From assembly GCA_001784285.1 (NCBI GenBank), contig MFQC01000009.1, forward strand, positions 8,828 to 72,827: a stretch of DNA of 64,000 bases, written 5' to 3'. Positions 3,001 through 60,746 of the stretch are shown here, piece after piece. The notes below the pieces were generated by a model, which made no database searches, had not been told where the DNA came from, and was given only the letters and a program-made list of their open reading frames with translations. This DNA is from Candidatus Magasanikbacteria bacterium RIFCSPHIGHO2_02_FULL_48_18 (lineage in GTDB: Bacteria > Patescibacteriota > Patescibacteriia > Magasanikbacterales > UBA922). The position numbers and the translations under genes were made by a program. Numbering within the stretch: position 1 is the first letter of the stretch; each line of letters starts with the position of its first letter.

Positions 3001-4125
3001 GCCTTTTTCCAATCCTTTCCCCACCAACCACCGTCCGGCCGCGTACCCGCTCGCGATGGTTGCCACTTTCTTTCCAAAATCAAGGACTCCCCCGACAAAA
3101 CTGCCCCCGACAGCGCCAACTTTTTGGACCGCCGTGAGCCCGACAAACAAAAATGCGATAGCAATAAAAAAATTTGCCATGTTTTCCCACGTGGTCACTT
3201 CGCTTGAGGACACTTTGAGCGTGCCCCCGGGAACGCCTGCCTGCTGAAGCACTTTTTGCGCGTCCGAGCCGTCAATATTGAGTCCCAAATCCGACATGGC
3301 AACGTCGCCCGTTCCAAGCGTGGCAAACGCAAGCCAGAGAAAGAATACCGCGACCGGCGCCACAATCACTTCTTTACCAAACATGGACCACCATTCTTTT
3401 GCGTACTGTTTGGTTTGCGGAATAACGTTCATGATATACGCCATTGGCGACAAAATAATCAACACCCACAATACAATGACCCGGAGTATCATCACAAACA
3501 AATACGCGCCAACAACCGCAAGTCCCATGAGCGCAAAAACAAAGGCCATAACCGCGCCGCCAAAGAGTTTAATGTCAATGCCTCCGGTCATAATATCTTC
3601 ACCGACCACATTGAGAATCGAGTTCATGCGGAGCATTTCAATAAGGTTGCCCCCGGCCGTGTTTTGGATGGCCGTCACAAAGGTCATGGTAAAGATATGC
3701 GCGGCGTCAATAATAAGGCCGGCAATGAGTTTGCTGAAATTGACAAGAAGCGCCGCCAAGATAAAATGCGCAAGCGTTTTTTTCCATTCGTATTGTTCAA
3801 TACCAAGGACCGTGCCAAACGCGATAACAAGCAATACCACCACAAAAAACATATTGGCAACGTCGCGCACCATAAACCAGCCGATGACGACGGTCGGTGT
3901 GTCAACATAGCCATTATATTTTGCGAGTTCGACAAAAAATTTGAAGAAAAACATGGTCAAGCTCATGAGCACAGTGGCAAGCTCAATCAAAATCCACGAC
4001 GCAAAGTGCAAGAGCGCGTCAAAAACGCCGGTTGCGACATCACCCAGCAAATCAAAAATCGCGTTTGCCGGTGTGGCGGTGAAAACCAGCCCGGAGACAA
4101 CAAAAAATAAGAAGATCGGCGTCAT
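1..4125 (-). CDS. Large polytopic membrane protein with a C-terminal charged-repeat tail, possibly TrbL/VirB6-like. The 3' end lies beyond the window start, so more than 1375 aa are encoded here.
   Basis: I translated this by hand. The minus-strand frame is open and stop-free from 4197 down to position 1. The six-frame track omits it, presumably because there is no stop in the window. The start is ATG 4125..4123, giving MTPIFLFFVVSGLVF.... The first roughly 330 aa contain at least eight strongly hydrophobic segments. They are followed by a K/E/D-rich soluble region with recurring motifs (EYQGY, EYHGYQ, EYKEY, WMxKxHxDEY). There is no Shine-Dalgarno site, as with most genes in this window. Confidence 0.8.
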   Translation of the reverse strand, partial: MTPIFLFFVVSGLVFTATPANAIFDLLGDVATGVFDALLHFASWILIELATVLMSLTMFFFKFFVELAKYNGYVDTPTVVIGWFMVRDVANMFFVVVLLVIAFGTVLGIEQYEWKKTLAHFILAALLVNFSKLIAGLIIDAAHIFTMTFVTAIQNTAGGNLIEMLRMNSILNVVGEDIMTGGIDIKLFGGAVMAFVFALMGLAVVGAYLFVMILRVIVLWVLIILSPMAYIMNVIPQTKQYAKEWWSMFGKEVIVAPVAVFFLWLAFATLGTGDVAMSDLGLNIDGSDAQKVLQQAGVPGGTLKVSSSEVTTWENMANFFIAIAFLFVGLTAVQKVGAVGGSFVGGVLDFGKKVATIASGYAAGRWLVGKGLEKGKKSLMNAPFIGGRSWIRAGKRLDEFRRQNKYIRHIPLIGGYNEEYQDKLDDRVEAVKKQQKDSRAKDMSKNEPPLSLAGTALVNKVFGQIPILKRLGQVDYEWDDEKGDFKYEQERVEKKNADGTTAYEMRDKVDKDGNKIKQKKYVGIVGLDAMTARRNFAEYQEMAAIQMRSPENKKSREHRNRERLLKEGRQLVVAAEDHEFEGWMEKEHADEYQGYAALDDEGKKAFREKKRTTTVKQQKEVEEDAPSFIDEFRHTPEFVEDEDKKFRNWIKAKDPVQYNGYKEMNTLQQWEFKKQHLEEFRKDSMVAPEQTQQFERWLQKENAGAYVNYTAADEPGKTKLITDKQKKKVTKSVEVQKDLGSLDEEFAKDPEVSAEQLKQFGQWLEVEHPNEYKEYAALSSDKSRSGWMKFTQIGADQEVKVEDEFLADPEIVAQQNKQFDAWMQKKHGDEYHGYQGMDEAGKAEFKRRKQKKTIKDERGKEVVIDSDSRLEEFRSNPANVKAVGDTISGINHPERWKGSKRTWVPKRDEGVYSRASRNAAQYIVQHETNRVAEEKLKEAQSKATEAVWMGPLGKKLAEQLGEAEIGAKIGEDIVKGMKNAHLEKVFESSLDKFRKMKDKGNLDLWLLQGNDAASVFARAIQQAKFAEEHEENMAIVKGETQSEVEGTFIEAPAQGKATYAQSFVASAKRIAESLNRVDEAGRAEFGGAALMRLAFHREQARMQGKEGVSMDVQKHMYGMLSNLAENANLDDAINSMGQAIERYETDEEYRNGLSPAERDEFEATKRAFGPEGEFKMLERVLNSEQRFVGEDGKVLMVPDGKGGEREAASVDELLENNVHGIEHKEHLIENADGSVVTQEEFLNNKYGAMTAVKKGSYYDEQGIILRDAEGNAITQLSAGQQVLEGQGKIKKIKKDGFADKDGKIIRIEDPNKGKKDWQTASSVQELFAGQVVLKGAFLKGGKVLKDDRGENITSPEQVFDAAMKGIERKYLGFIG

Positions 4126-4293
4126 CCATTTTTTTGCTCGGAAGAGCGACGTTATTTTTTTTCCAACATGCTTCACAGCCAAGAAATCATGGAGTGATCA
4201 ATTGTGAAGAAGTATAGCATAAAAAAGAAAAAAAATGGAGAAAAAATCGTTATTTTGGGGATAGTATTTCATAAACACGTTATCCACTTTTTA

Positions 4294-4325
4294 TCCTTGA
4301 CAAACCTTTGTCACCTTGACAAAAC
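4294..4325. promoter_or_regulatory. Candidate operator: inverted repeat TGACAAA-cc-TTTGTCA plus a third CTTGACAAA half-site.
   Basis: The sequence CCTTGACAAACCTTTGTCACCTTGACAAAACGG lies between the small-RNA locus and the start of the membrane-protein gene. Confidence 0.3.
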
Positions 4326-4399
4326 GGCTTTTTTGTGCTTTAATAGAATTGGAGAATTGTGTTTATTTTTTCGCTTGAAAAAAGCAAAAAGCTCTTTAA

Positions 4400-4519
4400 A
4401 AAAACAAAAAGGCTTGCACACACAAGCCTCCTTCGGTGGTGGACCGTGGGGGAATTGAACCCCAAGAGTGAGGATGGTAAGCCTACTCGTGCACCTGCAC
4501 ACACGGCCCATAGTCCACC
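4400..4519 (-). ncRNA. Small RNA 1, about 120 nt: a tRNA-like or Y-RNA-like element, unclassified.
   Basis: A sigma70 promoter lies upstream on the minus strand: TTGTTG, a 17-nt spacer, TATACT, then 7 T residues to the G start. The transcript begins GGUGGACUA and carries a T-loop-like GGGGUUCAAUUCCCCC hairpin. ACGGUCCACCA near the 3' end pairs perfectly over 7 bp with the 5' GGUGGAC. It ends in an intrinsic terminator, GGCUUGUGUGUGCAAGCC followed by UUUUUGUUUUUUU. No anticodon arm can be folded, so it is not called a tRNA. Confidence 0.5.
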
Positions 4520-4525
4520 AAAAAA

Positions 4526-4554
4526 AGTATACCATAAAAGAAAATCCTCAACAA
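4526..4554 (-). promoter_or_regulatory. Sigma70-type promoter for small RNA 1.
   Basis: On the minus strand, -35 TTGTTG sits at 4549-4554 in plus coordinates. A 17-nt spacer separates it from -10 TATACT at 4526-4531. The presumed start site is 7 nt downstream. Confidence 0.5.
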
Positions 4555-4709
4555 AGAATTTATGTTGAGGACTTTCTCCGGGATTCACCCGACCGAATAT
4601 GCAGTTTTATACGAAGTAGGTTTACCATCCTAAAACAAGGATACCCCATTTTAAAAACCCTGTCAAGTGGAAAAATGATAGATCACTCCATCCAAACAAA
4701 CCAATTGAG

Positions 4710-4738
4710 ATAGAGTAATCCATCGTTCTTTCACAAAA
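4710..4738. repeat. 29-bp direct repeat ATAGAGTAATCCATCGTTCTTTCACAAAA, first copy. The second copy is at 5017-5045. It marks the unit boundary of the tandem duplication.
   Basis: Exact string match between 4710-4738 and 5017-5045. Confidence 0.85.
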
Positions 4739-4860
4739 ACAAAAAGGCTTGCACACACAAGCCTCCTTCGGTGGTGGACCGTGGGGGAATTGAACCCGTT
4801 CCACTGTGTGTCAAGTACAGCATGCTCACCAGATACACTACTGGCCCTTACTAGTCCACC
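4735..4860 (-). ncRNA. Small RNA 2, a diverged tandem paralogue of small RNA 1, about 126 nt.
   Basis: It shares the 5' GGUGGACUA and 64 nt of 3' end with small RNA 1 (T-loop-like hairpin, ACGGUCCACCA, terminator). Repeat A at 4400-4463 equals repeat A at 4735-4798. The middle body is unrelated. An extended -10 (TGTTAATAT) lies upstream at 4867-4875. Confidence 0.45.
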
Positions 4861-5308
4861 AAATTTATATTAACATAAAAATCTCCCCGGAGGAAGATCT
4901 TTACGTTGACACACAGTTTCAACCAGTAGAAATCTAGTTGCTGTACAAAAATACAATATCACATATCTGGAAACTTTGTCAAGCGAAAGCCCGATGGTTT
5001 ACCCGATTAAAATACAATAGAGTAATCCATCGTTCTTTCACAAAATGACAATTCTCTCCATAATGGACGAGAACTGTCTTACAAATACAGCGCGTGTGAG
5101 GCGGAAATTGCTCTGCTTCCGGAAATACCCGGGAGAGAGCCATGAAAGCCTAATAATATTGCGAACTCCTAAAAGCAACACGGCGCCTGCCGAATGGAGC
5201 GGTTGGATGTGTCATCCTGATCAGAATGACATACCCAACTGCTCCACGGACAAGGCGAAACCGTGGGACCACAATGCCGCATCCAGGCGGCGAGACAGGA
5301 GGTGCCAC

Positions 5309-6043
5309 ATGGCACGTTTCATCGCCCTCGCCGCCACCCTGGCGGCGTGCTTCTTCCTCGCGTGCGAGGAGGAAGGGACTGGTCCCACCGACGGGACCAC
5401 TGCGACGACAACGGGCTCCGCCGCAGGCGAGCCCACCACCCCCAGCAACGACGGCAACGACTGCACCGACAACAACCCGTGCACCGAGGAGACGTGCGAC
5501 GGCGACGTTTGCACGACCCATACTGAGTCGTGCAACGACAACGGATGCACCGAGGAATGGTGCAACCAATGGGGGTGCTCCAGTTGCACCAACTGGAGCA
5601 GTGGCGCCTCGGGGTGCACAGGCACCCCGGGCGGCCCTACTGCCCCCATTGTCGACCCCGACCCCCCTGGCGACGACCCCGTCCCCCCGCCGGAGGTCGA
5701 CTGCTCGGCCTGGACAACTCTCCTTTCCGGCACGTTCTACGAGCCGGAGCTGATCGGGGAGTTCGAAGTCCCTGGTTTTATTCAGTACCTCGAACCGGAC
5801 TTCGAGGGGATCGTCGGCGCGGGCTACGGCCTGTGCCGGTCGTCTGTTGATGACGCAATCGGCGTCGTCGACAACGTGTGGGGTGTGCTCGATGGAGCAG
5901 GAAAGAACATCGCCTGTGGACCGTTCCCGGGCGATAGTGTGCTCCACTTCGAGCCGATCGACAGCGACTGCATCAAAATCGGAGGGACTGCCCTTACAAA
6001 CTGGAGCATCCCCAACGATTTTTTGATTGCATGCCGACTGTGA
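5309..6043 (+). CDS. GC-rich lipoprotein that is Cys-, Asp- and Thr-rich, with CxxxNPCTxExC-type repeats.
   Basis: AGGAGG lies 6 nt upstream of ATG 5309. The signal peptide with lipobox reads MARFIALAATLAAC. The repeats read CTDNNPCTEETCDGDVCTTHTESCNDNGCTEEWC. Local GC is roughly 65% against roughly 48% in the flanks. The longer track ORF from 5045 is probably an N-terminal over-extension. Confidence 0.7.
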   Translation: MARFIALAATLAACFFLACEEEGTGPTDGTTATTTGSAAGEPTTPSNDGNDCTDNNPCTEETCDGDVCTTHTESCNDNGCTEEWCNQWGCSSCTNWSSGASGCTGTPGGPTAPIVDPDPPGDDPVPPPEVDCSAWTTLLSGTFYEPELIGEFEVPGFIQYLEPDFEGIVGAGYGLCRSSVDDAIGVVDNVWGVLDGAGKNIACGPFPGDSVLHFEPIDSDCIKIGGTALTNWSIPNDFLIACRL

Positions 6044-6113
6044 AACCCAAGAGCGCCAGGTCCCGCCTCACACGCCTGCGCTCGCTGTATATAGAAACAC
6101 TTCTGTTCTGTAT

Positions 6114-6141
6114 AGAGCGTACCAAAAAATCCCCGTTCGGG
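6114..6141. terminator. Bidirectional intrinsic terminator.
   Basis: The sequence is AAAAAATCCCCGTTCGGGGGATTTTTT, a stem flanked by an A-run and a T-run. Confidence 0.7.
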
Positions 6142-6326
6142 GGATTTTTTGTTTGTCTTCGTTGAAGAAAAGGAATCCCTGCCTGCCGGTAGGCAGGGCA
6201 GGCAGGCTTCTGCGCCCAGGGCGCATCAGGATGACAACATCAAACCCAGAAAACTTAACCTCCGCCCAAGGCAGCCCGCCCGCCTTTGGCGGGGATCAGC
6301 CTTTGGCTGAAACTCAGTCAACTATT

Positions 6327-9300
6327 TTACTTCTGCTCCGGCACCACAATAATAACACCATGATAATAGGTCCATCGTTCTTTGTTATAATTATCCTCAC
6401 ACTCTTTATTTCCTCCGGCATTAAAATCATTATACAACCCCTCCTCACTCGGAATCATATCCTTATTCTTCCCGCCCGGAATCCATGCCGGGCCGCCGGT
6501 CGCGGAACTCTTTGACGCGTTGCACCAACCCCAGTTGTCAAGGACCTGTACCCGCGGGCGGTACGCGCACACTTTGGACGGTTCATAGCCAACCAAATCC
6601 ACGACGCCTTTTTTCTGCCACTCGGTGAGCGCGGAAAAATCCACATTCGCGCTTCCTGAAGAACATTCATACGTATACTCGGCCTTAAACGGCTTGTCGA
6701 CGCACGCGCGGTCGCTGTTGCCAAAGCGCGGTTTATTGTATGAATCAGTGTATGTTTGTTGGTACGATGGAAGATCTTTTTCCTTATAACACAAGAGGTC
6801 GTCAAATCCGAGAGCATGCGGACAATCGTCTTCTTTGTCGTACGCTTTGCAGGTCATAAGGTCGGGAAGCTGTTCTGAGCCGCCGCCCCAACACACCCCA
6901 ATATCGCCTTCGGAGAATTCGCAGAACGGTTTGTAGTTTTCGTAATACCCATGCGTTTTTTCGTTCGTAATATAACCGGTTGCCGAATCGTCCCAATCAA
7001 TCATAATGCGCCGGATGGGCATATGATTATCGTCGGCCGCGACAAAAAATTCGGCTGTGGCTTTGAACGTTTTTTGGGCTATATGCATGGTCGGTTCCGG
7101 CGCGTTGTTTGGCGCTTCGTCCGGATCATTATTGGGATCACGATCATAATTATACTTTGTGCCATTTTTTCCTGTAACAGTAAAATTGTGTTTGTCACCC
7201 GCAGTACATGGTCCATGTTCTCCATAACAACGGTATGGATTGAGCGAATAGACAACAGGCGGGCGATTATTGGTTGGTTTGTTATACTCTGATCCTTCAT
7301 CCCATGCCGTTTTACTCTCAAACTCATCCGGCTTCTCGCCCGTTTTGCGCATTTTTATAGAAAATGTTTTTGCAAACAATTGAGCGAGCCGACTCTTGCC
7401 AATATAATCCGGATCATAACTAGCATAATATGACCCAATGCCAAATTCCATATCACCGGGAATCGTTAAACCATCGCCCAAACTACTGCATCGGAAATCA
7501 TTGGTACCACTCCAATCCGGGATTGTTTGCCACATGTAATCCCATAAATAATCTGAACCACTTGGACCAATATTATCATCCGCCACGGGTTCGGCATTCA
7601 GTTCATTCGTACCCGCATAGATATTTTTTCCAAACAATTTTCCGCATGCGTATGGAACGCCCTGGTTATCATTAAAAGTATATTTGCGTAAGATACTATC
7701 GGTTTCCAAATCATCTTCAATTAAATCGAGAGACCCATATGGTGGATTTTCTGTTTCAAACCATTTTACCTCATCACTGAAAAATTTTGGTTCGCCTACA
7801 TCCCAGTGGGGTGATGGCGGATAAATTTGAGATGCCTGCCACACACGATTGGTCCACGCCTTATTCGTCGGTTGATCCGTATCAATCTTGGTGTCATCGT
7901 AGACGCTCGCAAATTCAGTACATCGGGGGTTGAGCTCAACCAGAACAGAGAGAAGCGCATGTCTTCCTACAGCATGATTTTTAACATCGTCATCATCATT
8001 TTTATATCTCTCGCTATATTTATACCACAAATTACCCCCGTCATAAGAGAGTTTTCCATCTCCATTATTGAATCGAATCATCCACACATTGTATGGCGCT
8101 TTCGCTTGTGTTTCTATAGGCACATTATACAAACTTTCTTCAATTATACTACGATATATTGTGTTTCCATCATCTTCTCCACTTTGGAAAATAGCGATAC
8201 CATAGACATGCTTTCCGTCATTAGAATCCCCTGTATACGCATCTTTGTTTATTCCAAAAAATTGCACAGCCTGAAATTTCTTTGTTTTGCCGAGAGCAAA
8301 TTCTTTCACACTAAAAGCATACGTTTCATCTTTTGGCGCATCCTCATGAAGAGGAGACTGGGGATTGTCTATTTTCATTGCTTGGAGATTTTCAAAATCT
8401 ATTTCAAGCCCTGGATAAAAATGAGGTAAATTGAGTTCATTATAAGCACCCGGATCTCCTGCCAACATCATCGGGCCCATATGAAATTTCTTGACATCTT
8501 GTTCATACAGATCCCCCTGCATTCGATAATCCTTGCCAAAGGTACCAATAATATACTTGGCAATAGGAGTCTTTCCTTTTCCATCTTCATCCCAAGCCTT
8601 TGTCTCTTCTACGTCGGTATATATATAACCGGAAGCATCCGTGACCGGAATTTTTTCGCTCAGCATGGACCACCAGCCCGGGCTGTCAATCCATAATACT
8701 TCCGTATTGGGACTTCCTTTCCCATCGTTAATGCCATGCCAACCATACAATTTCATAAACGTATATATTTTTTTCTGGTACGCTAAAGACTGCAATTTCA
8801 AATCGCTTCCGAGCTCGCCGGTAGTCGCCCCCTTTGGAATATTCATGGGTGGGAGATCGGCGATATTATCATATTGCGTACCGCCATCTGACCACCATGT
8901 AACCCAAAGAGGAGGCGCATTCAAAAGTGAAGTCCAGCGCTCATCGCCAGTATCCCCCGCAAGATCGTCTATTTCTGGACCCAAAATATCTTCCAATTCA
9001 ATATATACCGGAGCATCGCTATCATCATAGGTAAGAGAATTAGAATGAAAAATTTTATAATACATATCCTTTGAATAAGTTAACCCAGAGCTAGGATAAG
9101 CATAATTTATTGCTTTCAACATTTCGACACCACTCAACACCATACTTTGGTTATAGGCCGGCGCGGCGGCGGCGACCGTGCAATACACCTGGCCCTTGCC
9201 ATTATTGGAATCCAATGCCACATCATAGCCGGTTGTCGGATCGTTGTTATAAATATCAACACCGGTCACATTGACGTCCAACGGCAACCATGTTTGACAT

Positions 9301-12300
9301 GCATAGAGGCCGGTGCCACCTCCCAATGGGCGGCTGAGATCGCGCTCCAGACAAAAACCGCTTGTTCCCACGTGCATGGATTTGTTGGTATAAGGCGATT
9401 CTTTGCAAATCAATCCGTCGCCGCACTGACCGTCGTCGGTTTGGCATGGCTTGCCTATATTTCCCGCGTCTTCCACTTCGCCCGACCCCGAAAGGCCCGA
9501 ATCCGCCGGCAATTGACACGTTCTCGGACCGTGGCTTGCTTGCCCGAGCGGCCAATACCCAACATTGCCATCCGCATATTCGTTAACGAGATAACTGCAC
9601 GAACAGTCGCCCTTTTGGCAGATATTCGCTTTGTCGTATCCTTCTATTTTTTGCGTATATAATTTGAAAAACGAAGGCGACGGCGTGTTTCCTTCCACGT
9701 CTTTTTGTAGATCTTTTGCAAAATTGACCGGAAACGGACTGTCTTCTTCCGGATAGACTTTACAGCTTGCCGGGATAAGATCATCCTTGGTAAATTCATC
9801 CTTTTCACCCAAGCCCGAAATTGGGTAGACGCATTCGCCGCTGTAACACTTTCCTTTGCTGTCCTCGCCGCATAAGGCTCCATCATTTTTCGGCACTACA
9901 TTGCCAGAGACTGTTTTAAAACAAGAACTTTGATCCGGATTGGACGACGAATCGGCATAAAATTTGTACGCGAGGTAGCTGGTTTTCCCGGTCGTGCCGC
10001 TGTCAATGCCAATATAGGTAAAATCATTGATTTGGTATCGGTTAAAAAGCGAGTAGCCCGTATACTCCGGATCGCCATACCACGTCGTGTCGCGGGCAAT
10101 GTATTTTTCTTCAGTCAAAAACTTGGACTCATGCGGGTAATCGCTCTGTTCCACCCAATCCACGCAATCTTTGCCATCTCGTTCGGTGCATGCCCGATAA
10201 TCTTCGCACACGTCAAGCGTCAGTCCCGTTTCTTGCTGTTGTTTTGTCTGCGACGACCGGCAGGCCAGCCACTCGGCGCATACGCGATCGCGATTCACTT
10301 TCAAAATGATATTGCTGTCCCCGCCGGACACGCTACTTGCTTGTTTTGGCGAGACCAAATTGTCATTATTTTTTTCGCTGTCCGTATACGTCGCCTGGGC
10401 AAGATACGGACGGGTTGACTCGTCCACCTTATTCAACAACACGCACCCTTCTTTTAAGCTCACCTTGCCGCCGCATTCGTCAATACGATTGGTAATAGTA
10501 CTGTTGAAAATAACGGGATATGGGGTGCCGTTCGGATATTTGGCCGTTTTGTCAACCGGATCAACCAACTCGGTACAGCCATTAAATTGTTCCGGGCACT
10601 GCCCCACCAATCCATCATATTGAAATGCGCCATTGGAATAAATACCAAACGATGTGTCGGCAAGAATATACCCCGGATAACACGGAATTTTATTTTTATT
10701 TTGGCACATGCCGGAAGCGCATTCTTGATCGGCAGTACACAATGATCCGTTGGTACATTCGCCCACATCTTTCTTTACCCACCCGGAACGGGTAATACCG
10801 GTCTTGTCGACAAAAGACTCCTGATAGACGCATTGCGCGTTGCCATTTTTGAGCGGATCTTTAAAGAAAGACACCGTGTTTCCGGAATTGAACTGGCCGC
10901 ATCCGAGCAAATCCTCGCGGCACAGCACGCCTTCCGGACCAAGATATTTGTCCGGATTGTTTTTGATGTACTCTTTCTCAAAAGAATATGATCCCGCCGC
11001 AGTAAACCCGTCCGGGACCGCCTGTTCGCGCAATGCGATTTTTTCACATCCCAAAAATGCCTGATCGCACACGGTATTTTTGGTTTTGGTAAGGAAAATG
11101 GGGTCGTTTTCGGGCGTATCCGCGCCAATCAGCACGCTCGAATCATCCACAAACAAAATATCCGGCGAGGTATTGGTGCTGTTTTGTTGCACGGCAAGAA
11201 ATGTCACAAACGGCTGCAACTCAAATTTCCCAAAAGAATACGTTGCATCGGGCAATGCTATGGGGCCGGGAATATAACATATTTTTGAACCGGTTGGAGG
11301 CGTGCAGGTATGGTTGGCTCCATTCAAATTAACCGTGCAGGTATTCCCAGACGAGGTATTTTTATAGCACGCAATGTTGTAGACGATCCGGTCTTCCGCG
11401 CCATCCATGGCAATGGTATTTTGGGTGTCATATAGCGCGGTACATCCGACTGCTTCTGGCCGGCAGAGCGACGCAAAACCGGTCGCGTACCACAGCGTAT
11501 TTTGCGTATCCGTGTACATTTGACATCCCAACGCTTCGCCCGGCAACCCGTCGGTCGGGTCGCTGTCGCACGCTATAGGCGCGTTTGCACTCACCAATCC
11601 GCCCTCATACTCTATCGTGCGTTGCCATGAATTTTTGATAAGATGATATTGATCCACGAGACGCGTCAGGCGCACATTGTCCAGAAAATATCCTCCCGGT
11701 GTACCTTCGCGTTTGAATACCAAAGAAACCGGATCGGTTGTGTTGCCGGTAAATTGAACAGGACCGATATGATACAATTGCCAGGACTCCTGGAGCTCGA
11801 TTTTATTTTCCTTGTTCAAGAGAGGATCAAAGGTAAAATACCAGCTCGTCTCTGTCTTGCCATTTTGCGACAAGTTGATGGACAATTGTTGCCCCGCGAC
11901 GCCGCGCGCCCAGAACGAAAGCTCGTACCAATTGGCGGCATCCTCTGCATTGCCGCTTTGGATGGTTCCGGTTGCAATGATCCGTTCCACTTTTTCGGTA
12001 TTGACCAATAACGAATACAGCCCGACTTGGATAGATTCGGCCGCGACGGAAATGCTTCCGGCGGCGATATCGACTTTTTTCCAATCTTTTTTGGCATCGT
12101 TCAGGGCGTTTGCGTCGTCTCCGGACGGTTCAAAAATATCAAGAAATACCTGTTCGACATTGTTTCCCGAATTGCCTACATACAAACGGCACCCGCTGGC
12201 TTCTTTGGGACAAGCATTTGCCTGGCCGGGCGTATTGATGGTGTTATACACGCACGATCCTCCGGAGGCCGGATTATTTTCGTCGGGTTTGTATGCTCCG

Positions 12301-33684: not shown

Positions 33685-34179
33685 TTATTCTTCTTTCAGG
33701 GTCGCGAGGTCGTCGTCGTTATACTCGAGGTCGGAAATCCCGAGGTACTCGGGATCGTACGGTTCCGAACCGTAGTAGAGCGCTTCGATATCGCCGATAT
33801 CGACAGTCGGTTCATCATCTCTCAGCTCGAAGGCGTAGTCCTTCTGGAACATGCCGTTTCCGGACGAACGACTGACGAGCAAGAGATAAGAGCCGGCGCC
33901 GGGAACGGAGAGAACAAAGCGTCCAACCGCGTCCGTGTTGGCCGTGGAGATAGCCGCGCTCATGTCGGCCCGATCGAGAACCATGACCTCGGCATCCGGT
34001 AGCGCCACGGTGTCGAAAGACACCATGCCGGTGAGCTCGGTCCCCAAAGCCGCGAGAGAGGCCTGAGAGGAGGCGTACTGGTCTTCGAAATCGGTGTCGC
34101 AACCGGCGGCGAAGAACCCGAACGCCAAGAGAGAAAAGAACCACGTGACAATCCGCTTCATGCGGGACGTGATGTACAT
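33685..34179 (-). CDS. GC-rich lipoprotein with a carboxypeptidase-regulatory-like (transthyretin-fold) domain.
   Basis: AGGAGG lies 7 nt upstream of the ATG, giving MYITSRMKRIVTWFFSLLAFGFFAAGC (lipobox AAGC). The stretch AEVMVLDRADMSAAISTANTDAVGRFVLSVPGAGSYLL is CarboxypepD_reg-like. GC is about 60% with G/C third positions. Confidence 0.65.
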   Translation of the reverse strand: MYITSRMKRIVTWFFSLLAFGFFAAGCDTDFEDQYASSQASLAALGTELTGMVSFDTVALPDAEVMVLDRADMSAAISTANTDAVGRFVLSVPGAGSYLLLVSRSSGNGMFQKDYAFELRDDEPTVDIGDIEALYYGSEPYDPEYLGISDLEYNDDDLATLKEE

Positions 34180-60122: not shown

Positions 60123-60716
60123 TTAATCAATACAAGGTTCGGCTTGGATGAAAACATCATCAATGCGATTGATCGTAACATGATAGTACGTCTTCTCATC
60201 TGCTTCTTCAATGGATGAGTTCTTTGCCGTTATTTTTTCCATCTCGACTTCGGCGAGCACTTTAATGGCGGGGGTGGAAAGAAAACACGCCGGGAGCGCC
60301 TCTTGTTGAAAAATTCGATCCCAGCTATCGGAGTCCAGGTATAACGGAAAACCACTCAATGTGACAATATTTTTTTGATCGTCTAAGACTGCTTCGCCAA
60401 ATCCACCGGTCCAACCAACCGATACAAAAAAAACTGCTTGCTGAGGATCGAATATTTCTATAATCTGGAAAGGCATCATTTTGACTTCGACATTTTGGTT
60501 CGTGAAGGCTTCACCGCCATTGCCATTGTTTATGGAAACTATTTTTTCATCTACTGTTGATGTAACTCCGGATATGGAGAATTCGCTTTTTGTACTTTTT
60601 GGGACATTATTTATCCCCAGCCCATTTTCTTTTACCGGGTTATCGGCCAGACAACCAACACCCACAAGGAGGAGCGCTAAAAACATGCATATAAATAATC
60701 GAAGCCGGCGTATCAT
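60123..60716 (-). CDS. Hypothetical lipoprotein.
   Basis: MIRRLRLFICMFLALLLVGVGC has a lipobox. The gene lies 15 nt downstream of valS. Confidence 0.5.
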   Translation of the reverse strand: MIRRLRLFICMFLALLLVGVGCLADNPVKENGLGINNVPKSTKSEFSISGVTSTVDEKIVSINNGNGGEAFTNQNVEVKMMPFQIIEIFDPQQAVFFVSVGWTGGFGEAVLDDQKNIVTLSGFPLYLDSDSWDRIFQQEALPACFLSTPAIKVLAEVEMEKITAKNSSIEEADEKTYYHVTINRIDDVFIQAEPCID

Positions 60717-60746
60717 AAAAAATCCAAGCATACAATATGTACAATA

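Follow-up and report, generated by a model that had tools for sequence, protein, structure and literature searches.

Bacteria of the Candidate Phyla Radiation (CPR) from the Rifle aquifer are reported to carry multiple copies of Lgt and, in Peribacteria, large Cys-rich extracellular proteins that vary between strains and have been proposed to serve in attachment (PMC4736985). Another CPR surface gene, encoding the hypervariable PTD-repeat protein of a Gracilibacterium, is described as shifted in codon usage towards C-ending codons (GAC) and as variable in repeat number (PMC6851277). Here we analyse a 64,000-nucleotide stretch of DNA, referred to throughout as the window, which is a chromosomal segment of the metagenome-assembled genome (MAG) of an uncultured groundwater member of Candidatus Magasanikbacteria (CPR/Patescibacteria; Rifle aquifer series; contig MFQC01000009.1). 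Near its left end, a gene that is much richer in GC than its surroundings and is preceded by a strong Shine-Dalgarno (SD) sequence encodes a predicted lipoprotein, and lies convergent to a gene for a giant Cys-rich protein. We lean towards reading it as a native, fast-evolving surface lipoprotein that belongs to a maintained gene class paired with the giant protein.

The giant neighbour is of the kind described from Rifle, being Cys-rich and from the same environment and superphylum; a small lipoprotein partner and a compositional signature are not mentioned in the accessible part of that report (PMC4736985). Like the Gracilibacterium PTD protein, the window protein is rich in Pro, Thr and Asp and would be the product of a CPR surface gene. 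The PTD protein differs, on the part of the report available, in having a transmembrane anchor in place of a lipobox, in its long 9-nt repeats and in being unpaired with a giant gene, and neither an SD sequence nor a GC island spanning the whole gene is mentioned there (PMC6851277). With bacterial lipoproteins in general (Sec signal peptide and lipobox, Lgt and LspA, PROSITE PS51257 type) the window protein shares a basic MAR start, a hydrophobic stretch and an [LF]-[AL]-A-C box, and with the surface-tethered lipoproteins of single-membrane bacteria an acidic, low-complexity linker after the lipobox. It is unlike described lipoproteins in that no family-level homology was found and that its composition and SD sequence are atypical for its own genome. 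In a non-exhaustive literature search, no report emerged of an SD-bearing lipoprotein gene that is conserved, has an excess of C-ending codons and is paired with giant genes in CPR. The protein itself is ordinary in kind, whereas a compositional island kept up across lineages and tied to an SD sequence and a giant partner is unexpected, and testable.

GC-rich island and lipoprotein gene

The GC content of the window rises abruptly from 0.38–0.44 just upstream of the gene to 0.63–0.66 over 5201–6000, and is 0.47–0.51 downstream (400-nt intervals), in agreement with the first-pass annotation, which had described an island of about 65% GC with G/C at third codon positions. At 63.7% GC, the coding sequence (CDS; coordinates of all features are collected in Table 1) lies 4.2 standard deviations above the mean of 0.474 for all 735-nt intervals; the maximum on this scale, 0.650, falls inside the island, and the highest value elsewhere is 0.563. 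GC by codon position in the plus-strand frame of the CDS is 0.57/0.56/0.78. Third-position GC (GC3) remains high along the gene (0.85, 0.78 and 0.70 in successive thirds), against 0.39–0.56 in the 31 native open reading frames (ORFs) of the window, and the gene has the largest distance in relative synonymous codon usage from the native genes. The long antisense ORF across the island, already considered spurious at first pass, is present; its GC content peaks at codon position 1, which marks it as the shadow of the GC3-rich sense frame.

The protein is identical to OGH83372.1 and is accompanied by near-identical cluster members. The ENA assembly ERZ27254842 matches the window at 100% over 16 kb and the Logan assembly SRR6482681 at 99.97% over 11 kb; since these assemblies are independent, the GC-rich gene is no assembly artefact. 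All sampled strains carry it. A Pfam scan of window ORFs identified genes for PBP1A, alpha-2-macroglobulin, GroEL, a release factor, PGI, NusA and ArgRS, and these housekeeping genes place the lipoprotein gene on the native chromosome.

Public annotation starts the protein 82–88 codons further upstream, in versions of 326 and 332 amino acids that read the leader as coding. We favour the ATG at 5309 because of the SD sequence, the N-terminal signal peptide and one ENA call of 244 amino acids. Over the leader (5066–5308), GC by codon position is 0.46/0.51/0.61, so that the rise at the third position is less pronounced there than in the CDS. The AGGAGG motif 6 nt before the ATG was correctly picked out earlier as unusual in an SD-poor setting: matches of at least 5 nt to the anti-SD complement precede only 5 of the 33 window ORFs, and the two longest (8 and 10 nt) belong to this gene and to a second GC3-rich lipoprotein gene described below.

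In its sequence, the protein has the hallmarks of a bacterial lipoprotein. Its N-terminus, MARFIALAATLAACFFLAC followed by EEEG, matches a PROSITE-like lipobox regular expression. The LAAC lipobox proposed at first pass (Cys14) is present; the predicted lipidated residue is most likely Cys19 (FLAC), which we prefer because it fits the usual length rule better, together with the AC-D/E pattern of the positional counterparts described below. A Pfam scan that covered part of the ORFs in the window revealed neither Lgt nor LspA.

Beyond the first linker, the Cys-rich module contains two tandem units, CTDNNPCTEETC... and CNDNGCTEEWC..., with a period of 66 nt and 75% identity at the DNA level (5469–5500 and 5535–5566), so that the tandem Cys repeats noticed earlier are real. 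In the population variant P0008 exactly one 22-residue unit (residues 63–84) is missing through a 66-nt deletion that keeps the frame. The Dictyostelium CTDC repeat (PF00526) and the Myxococcus cysteine-rich repeat are alike in their 22–24-residue period and C-x-D-x-N-x-C-T-x-E/D-x-C spacing, and the first half of the PF00526 profile aligns to the window repeat region. The window protein differs in having two degenerate units only; the alignment is limited to 14 of the 24 profile positions (1–14), and the isolated repeat region scores 14.2 bits against Dicty_CTDC (E = 0.039), below the cut-off of 27 bits. There is no NCBIfam match either, and the suggestion that these repeats are of a kind seen in high-GC predatory or social bacteria is unsupported. 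Borrowing of the Cys repeat from the giant protein or other window proteins was considered and rejected, as there is no significant similarity or common motif.

Searches with the whole lipoprotein gave no Pfam or NCBIfam match at E ≤ 1, and PDB sequence matches were noise. Only its own near-identical cluster was recovered, both when 5.8 billion clusters were searched by word index and in a full phmmer scan against 1.84 billion representatives, which together cover about 15 billion proteins; searches of viral contigs and plasmids gave no match. In these searches the window lipoprotein is an ORFan without a nameable donor lineage.

Within the CDS, a 16-nt inverted repeat (5570–5585 and 5999–6014; 94% complementary, 413 nt between the arms) is present, and recombination across it would flip the middle of the gene. 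Separately, in a short JGI contig (L001), positions 1–277 are unrelated high-GC DNA joined to the Cys repeat at window position 5479, with a minus-strand ORF that by eye resembles a fragment of a regulator or ATPase. As the remainder of L001 matches the window at 99.95% identity, we interpret the junction as a chimera that arose in assembly at the GC-rich repeat.

The same position in distant relatives

Using the C-terminal 500 residues of the giant protein as query, we fetched 18 loci of other species from GTDB genomes. They come from Magasanikbacteria, Falkowbacteria and MAGs labelled "Gammaproteobacteria", which we take to be mislabelled because their giant protein is the same as in named CPR MAGs. 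The giant C-termini of these relatives are 23–34% identical to that of the window, and relatives at intermediate distance (50–90% identical) did not come up when proteins were searched with the giant C-terminus. Ten loci are informative, in that the giant gene ends and enough downstream sequence follows (L011 and L014 end too soon). In nine of the ten, the giant gene is followed by a small convergent ORF on the opposite strand. These positional ORFs have GC3 values of 0.56–0.79, compared with 0.26–0.48 in the giant genes, and third-position C of 0.38–0.55, compared with 0.12–0.26. In all seven full-length examples the encoded protein begins with a signal peptide and lipobox, after which come acidic residues and a low-complexity linker. 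A GGAGG-type SD sequence, weak in L015, lies 4–9 nt before the start. No tRNA gene was found in any of the relatives' loci fetched.

A clade of these loci (L005–L010) allows the age of the anomaly to be judged. The lipoproteins of L005, L006, L007, L009 and L010 are mutually homologous (E values from 1e-12 to 4e-4), and that of L004 is weakly linked to that of L010. Within the clade, the lipoproteins are 27–40% and the giant C-termini 36–46% identical, and GC3 in the lipoprotein genes is about 0.3 or more above that of their neighbours. Giant C-termini that are just 36–46% identical imply saturated synonymous sites, yet the GC3 excess has been kept. In this clade, the GC anomaly is on these comparisons an equilibrium property of the gene and no fading scar of transfer, which is largely the outcome that the first-pass annotation had named as speaking against a recent acquisition. 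The rise is also confined to the CDS: in L005, GC is 0.39 in the spacer, 0.59 in the CDS and 0.385 upstream, and L010 is similar. The lipoproteins are no better conserved than the giant C-termini beside them, which suggests that the two genes have been inherited together.

For the L005-type counterpart (not the window protein), AlphaFold2 (AF2) predicts an eight-stranded beta domain with a predicted local distance difference test score (pLDDT) of about 88. The top PDB matches are calycin-type barrels, namely fatty acid-binding proteins, lipocalins, tick lipocalin-type complement inhibitors and Bdellovibrio Bd0675; these matches are weak (E ≥ 0.04, template modelling score ≤ 0.48) and not transferable to the C-terminal domain of the window protein.

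The relatives' loci offer some side observations. In L004, positions 6204–8017 and 8010–9824 form a 1.8-kb tandem duplication (99.9% identical) that covers the last ~790 nt of the giant gene and the lipoprotein gene. Being located at the end of a contig, the duplication may be real or an assembly artefact. In L006, an ORF of 447 residues (7777–9120, minus strand; GC3 0.60 in a locus of 44% GC) adjoins the GC-rich lipoprotein gene. Its N-terminus resembles adenylosuccinate synthetase by eye, and it may be a second compositional outlier there. The giant proteins of the window and of L004–L015 keep a C-terminal signature, DNWGWCNA ... [FY]Y.G.I[IV]V[VI]P, at 23–46% identity, which is a possible sorting or interaction motif.

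Codon dialect and origin of the gene

Codon usage was compared for 12 lipoprotein genes, each measured as a shift away from the giant gene that accompanies it. The shifts of all 12 correlate with one another (rho 0.16–0.85; 0.41–0.69 for the window gene against the others). C-ending codons increase (mean log shift +0.4 to +1.9), codons that end in A or T become rarer, and G-ending codons change little, with a smaller rise than the C-ending ones. A screen for ORFs with GC3 of at least 0.62, covering about 250 kb of fetched sequence as well as the window, identified one further ORF with a lipobox, the second lipoprotein gene of the window. Situated 28 kb from the first, it has third-position C of 0.46 and the longest SD match in the window, AAGGAGGTGA, and its codon shift correlates with that of the first gene (rho 0.68, p = 4e-9). 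The two rank first and second among the 33 window ORFs for the shift towards C-ending codons. Its product shows weak similarity to CarboxypepD_reg and DUF4198 (E about 3e-4, below the cut-off).

Mutational bias linked to the replicated or transcribed strand was rejected as a cause, since the second lipoprotein gene has the same third-position C excess on the opposite strand. Regional bias such as biased gene conversion is disfavoured, because the GC rise in the relatives stops at the CDS borders. High GC, mainly through C-ending codons, and a strong SD sequence are probably a maintained signature of the gene class, with selection as the presumed cause. That distant relatives have the same anomaly at this site speaks for maintenance rather than recent arrival, and a sharp GC and codon island with its own SD sequence is, by itself, no proof of recent transfer. 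The likely horizontal acquisition proposed at first pass probably does not hold, or is at any rate not the most economical explanation, given that no donor was found and no mobility gene lies in or beside the island, the similarly GC3-rich lipoprotein genes beside the giant gene in relatives, the second such gene in the window and the sub-threshold similarity of the Cys repeats to known families.

As a native member of such a class, the gene would be the local representative of a positional pair that extends across related CPR lineages, in which a small lipoprotein gene is convergent with that of a giant extracellular protein. We infer that the protein is lipidated, sits at the cell surface and partners the giant protein, and that its composition is under selection. 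The product would be exported, lipidated at the lipobox Cys (most likely Cys19) and anchored in the membrane as a disulfide-rich protein, with a two-unit, Cys-knot-like module and a C-terminal domain of 114 residues displayed on flexible Pro/Thr/Asp linkers. The conserved convergent pairing suggests that lipoprotein and giant protein act together at the cell surface, where the lipoprotein might be, for example, an anchor, a receptor or an attachment partner. The strong SD sequence may offset the GC-rich, structured start region in a genome that otherwise initiates without SD sequences; it is plausibly needed because such a start region would block SD-independent initiation.

More broadly, and only tentatively, we suggest that Magasanikbacteria-like CPR may keep, by selection, a separate dialect of C-ending codons and strong SD sequences for fast-evolving surface lipoproteins, one of which is the conserved partner of the giant protein, in genomes that elsewhere rely on AT-ending codons and initiate without SD sequences. 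If so, dialect genes would mimic foreign DNA, and detectors of horizontal gene transfer that rely on composition would systematically misclassify them. It would also point to a second, SD-dependent and C-ending-rich expression mode in SD-poor, reduced genomes that is reserved for fast-evolving surface lipoproteins, and the dialect would mark distinct translational or mRNA-level control of host-interaction proteins. Selection on the signature would point to a functional pairing of the small lipoprotein with giant Cys-rich proteins thought to mediate attachment of episymbionts. The combination of lipobox, SD sequence and third-position C excess could then provide a sequence handle for candidate CPR host-interaction genes where homology fails.

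Several results weigh against a maintained native class. Searches by blastp, hhalign and a local profile did not reveal homology between the window protein and its positional counterparts, with hhalign giving a probability of 3% and aligning the lipobox segment alone, and beside the giant gene there are at least five sequence types that cannot be aligned with one another. With giant proteins at 23–34% identity and lipoproteins diverging at least as fast, vertical descent predicts undetectable homology; the unalignable types are equally predicted by recurrent replacement of cassettes from a common pool. In L008, one of the ten informative loci, no gene of this kind follows the giant gene. For the window lipoprotein, an AF2 model made from a single sequence without an alignment has a pLDDT of 42 and is not usable. 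A third lipoprotein candidate in the window, at 60123–60731, has native composition and no SD sequence, so not every lipoprotein belongs to the GC3-rich class. GroEL is uncorrelated with the lipoprotein shift (rho 0.08–0.09) and moves towards C-ending codons by +0.06, compared with +0.57 and +0.54 in the two lipoprotein genes; ordinary optimal-codon selection in highly expressed genes is thus unsupported, in a test that is weak because GroEL is the sole reference gene, no ribosomal protein or EF-Tu having been identified in the window. The non-coding flanks of the window gene are also elevated in GC (0.53–0.55, against 0.34–0.44 in other intergenic DNA), which differs from the relatives and would suit an inserted block. 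Lastly, a 13-nt direct repeat (5026 and 6371), noticed post hoc, brackets the GC-rich region, and tRNA-like genes lie just upstream of it. The local alignment score of the repeat, 26, is barely above the shuffle maximum of 25.

Recurrent non-orthologous replacement would account for part of this. The site downstream of the giant gene would then be a hot spot for GC-rich, SD-bearing lipoprotein cassettes drawn from a shared mobile pool, for instance CPR phages or other CPR lineages, and the window gene might be a fairly recent arrival. The multiple unrelated types at one position, which have one codon dialect unlike that of every host genome, are in keeping with this, as are the GC-elevated flanks and bracketing repeat of the window and the recombinogenic nature of the area (variable copy number of the tRNA-like unit, loss of a repeat unit within the gene, the 1.8-kb duplication in L004). 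We nevertheless consider it unlikely, as no integrase, transposase or attC-like element and no copy in viral contigs or plasmids were found, a search of 5.8 billion clusters turned up no second host of any cassette type, the L005–L010 genes are homologous and no better conserved than the adjacent giant C-termini, and the relatives' GC rise stops exactly at the CDS ends.

A single, relatively recent acquisition, in which a block of about 1.3 kb (about 5046–6370) came from an unsampled high-GC donor that uses SD sequences and was inserted beside the tRNA-like genes, is unlikely. The region resembles tRNA-adjacent islets of horizontal transfer in its atypical GC and codons, its position near tRNA-like genes, its short direct repeat and its ORFan content. 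Its 64% GC and GC3 of 0.78, the GC-elevated flanks, a strong SD sequence in an SD-poor genome and the weak Dicty_CTDC-like similarity of the Cys repeats all suit such an event, and the 13-nt repeat and adjacent tRNA-like genes would fit insertion. Unlike such islets, the gene has no integrase or donor and is not patchy among the sampled strains; the atypical composition expected of an acquired islet is there, while a donor homologue, and absence or amelioration in relatives, are not. No donor homologue emerged from about 15 billion proteins, the anomaly persists without amelioration at the same position in distant relatives, and a second gene elsewhere in the window has the same dialect and SD sequence. 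A high-GC donor genome would strongly raise both C- and G-ending codons, whereas the excess here is mainly C-ending with a smaller rise in G-ending codons.

It is very improbable that the ORF does not encode a protein and merely stays open because a GC-rich non-coding element, for example a repeat or a structured RNA, contains few stop codons. Long ORFs in further frames and on the opposite strand, a strongly structured leader and spacer, the missing homologues and the low-confidence AF2 model fit this view, but all along the ORF the GC excess at third positions is specific to one frame, a textbook SD sequence, ATG, signal peptide and lipobox precede and a terminator follows the stop, the natural 66-nt deletion keeps the frame, Rfam gives no match at gathering score, and the positional counterparts have the same protein architecture, one family with a confident beta-rich model.

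Expression signals and neighbouring features

Transcription of the lipoprotein gene would be monocistronic, starting from its own promoter-like site. The promoter candidate overlaps the end of the second copy of a 29-bp repeat and would yield a structured leader of about 240 nt, from which translation would start at ATG 5309 in an SD-dependent manner; the transcript would end at the terminator at 6123–6151. The putative leader contains a long, nearly perfect hairpin at 5195–5247, and the hairpin and its region have no significant Rfam match and just chance-level miRNA matches. The start codon falls within a small hairpin immediately 3′ of the SD sequence in the minimum free energy (MFE) fold. 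The 3′ spacer is likewise structured (z = −5.6 for 6044–6330) and GC-rich (0.55 for 6044–6326). Its GC-rich hairpin was considered as a dispersed repeat and rejected, as it occurs once in the window, and no attC-like conserved element was found at the locus.

Table 1 Features of the lipoprotein locus and of the second GC3-rich gene, in window coordinates.
Feature	Position	Strand	Remarks
29-bp direct repeat, copy 2	5017–5045	+	100% identical to copy 1 at 4710–4738; holds the 13-mer TCCATCGTTCTTT
Sigma-70-like promoter candidate, TTCACA-16 nt-CATAAT	5037–5064	+	10 of 12 matches; consensus scan only, no proof of function
Putative 5′ leader, strongly structured	5066–5308	+	GC 0.53–0.56; MFE −114 kcal/mol, z = −8.1 against shuffled sequences
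Antisense ORF, 265 residues	5150–5947	−	GC by codon position 0.76/0.58/0.57; not a gene
Shine-Dalgarno sequence AGGAGGTG	5297–5304	+	AGGAGG core at 5297–5302, 6 nt before ATG 5309
Lipoprotein precursor CDS, 244 residues, stop included	5309–6043	+	GC 0.637, GC3 0.78, third-position C 0.53
Predicted signal peptide with lipobox, MARFIALAATLAACFFLAC	5309–5365	+	Cys19 (FLAC) or Cys14 (LAAC); PROSITE-like rule
Thr/Gly/Pro/Asp-rich low-complexity linker, residues 20–51	5366–5461	+	AF2 pLDDT <50
Cys-rich module, residues 52–103	5462–5617	+	10 Cys; two 22-residue repeat units
Pro/Asp-rich linker, residues 104–130	5618–5698	+	
C-terminal domain, ~114 residues	5699–6040	+	5 Cys; no family match or confident model
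Intrinsic terminator, 12-bp stem	6123–6151	+	A-run before, T-run after; usable in both directions
GC-rich structured spacer	6152–6326	.	Several short hairpins; between terminator and stop codon of the giant gene
Convergent giant gene, 3011 residues	6327–15362	−	Cys-rich (3.2% Cys); native composition, GC3 0.49; conserved neighbour of the lipoprotein gene
Second GC3-rich lipoprotein gene	33685–34179	−	GC3 0.74–0.75; lipobox FAAGC; SD AAGGAGGTGA

The second copy of the 29-bp repeat abuts the left edge of the GC-rich region, as had been noted at first pass. Its 13-mer, TCCATCGTTCTTT, occurs in the window only at 4719, 5026 and 6371; the first two copies lie within the 29-bp repeats and the third falls in the last codons (KERW) of the giant gene. 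We rejected the idea that a degenerate copy of the 3′ end of the giant gene makes up the 29-bp repeat and the region upstream, since the 13-mer alone is common to both and tblastn gave noise. The ORF list for 4100–6330 contains no integrase, transposase or other mobility ORF in or beside the island.

Positions 4395–5045 consist of two tandem units of ~335 nt, each with a minus-strand tRNA-like gene, which are identical over the 68 nt that span the tRNA 3′ end and terminator (4395–4462 and 4730–4797). ARAGORN calls the second unit only, as a 76-nt tRNA-Ser(UGA) without a long variable arm, and the Rfam scores are below gathering (21.8 against 29 for tRNA, 23.9 against 47 for a tRNA-Sec-like match). 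The copy number of the unit varies in the population, with a single unit in L003 (SRR6482681).

Upstream of the window start, past a gene of 1813 residues that runs off the left end of the window, L002 and L003 contain genes with PrgI, TraC-like and VirB4/TraG-type ATPase domains. The giant genes and the lipoprotein gene thus adjoin a cluster resembling type IV secretion systems.

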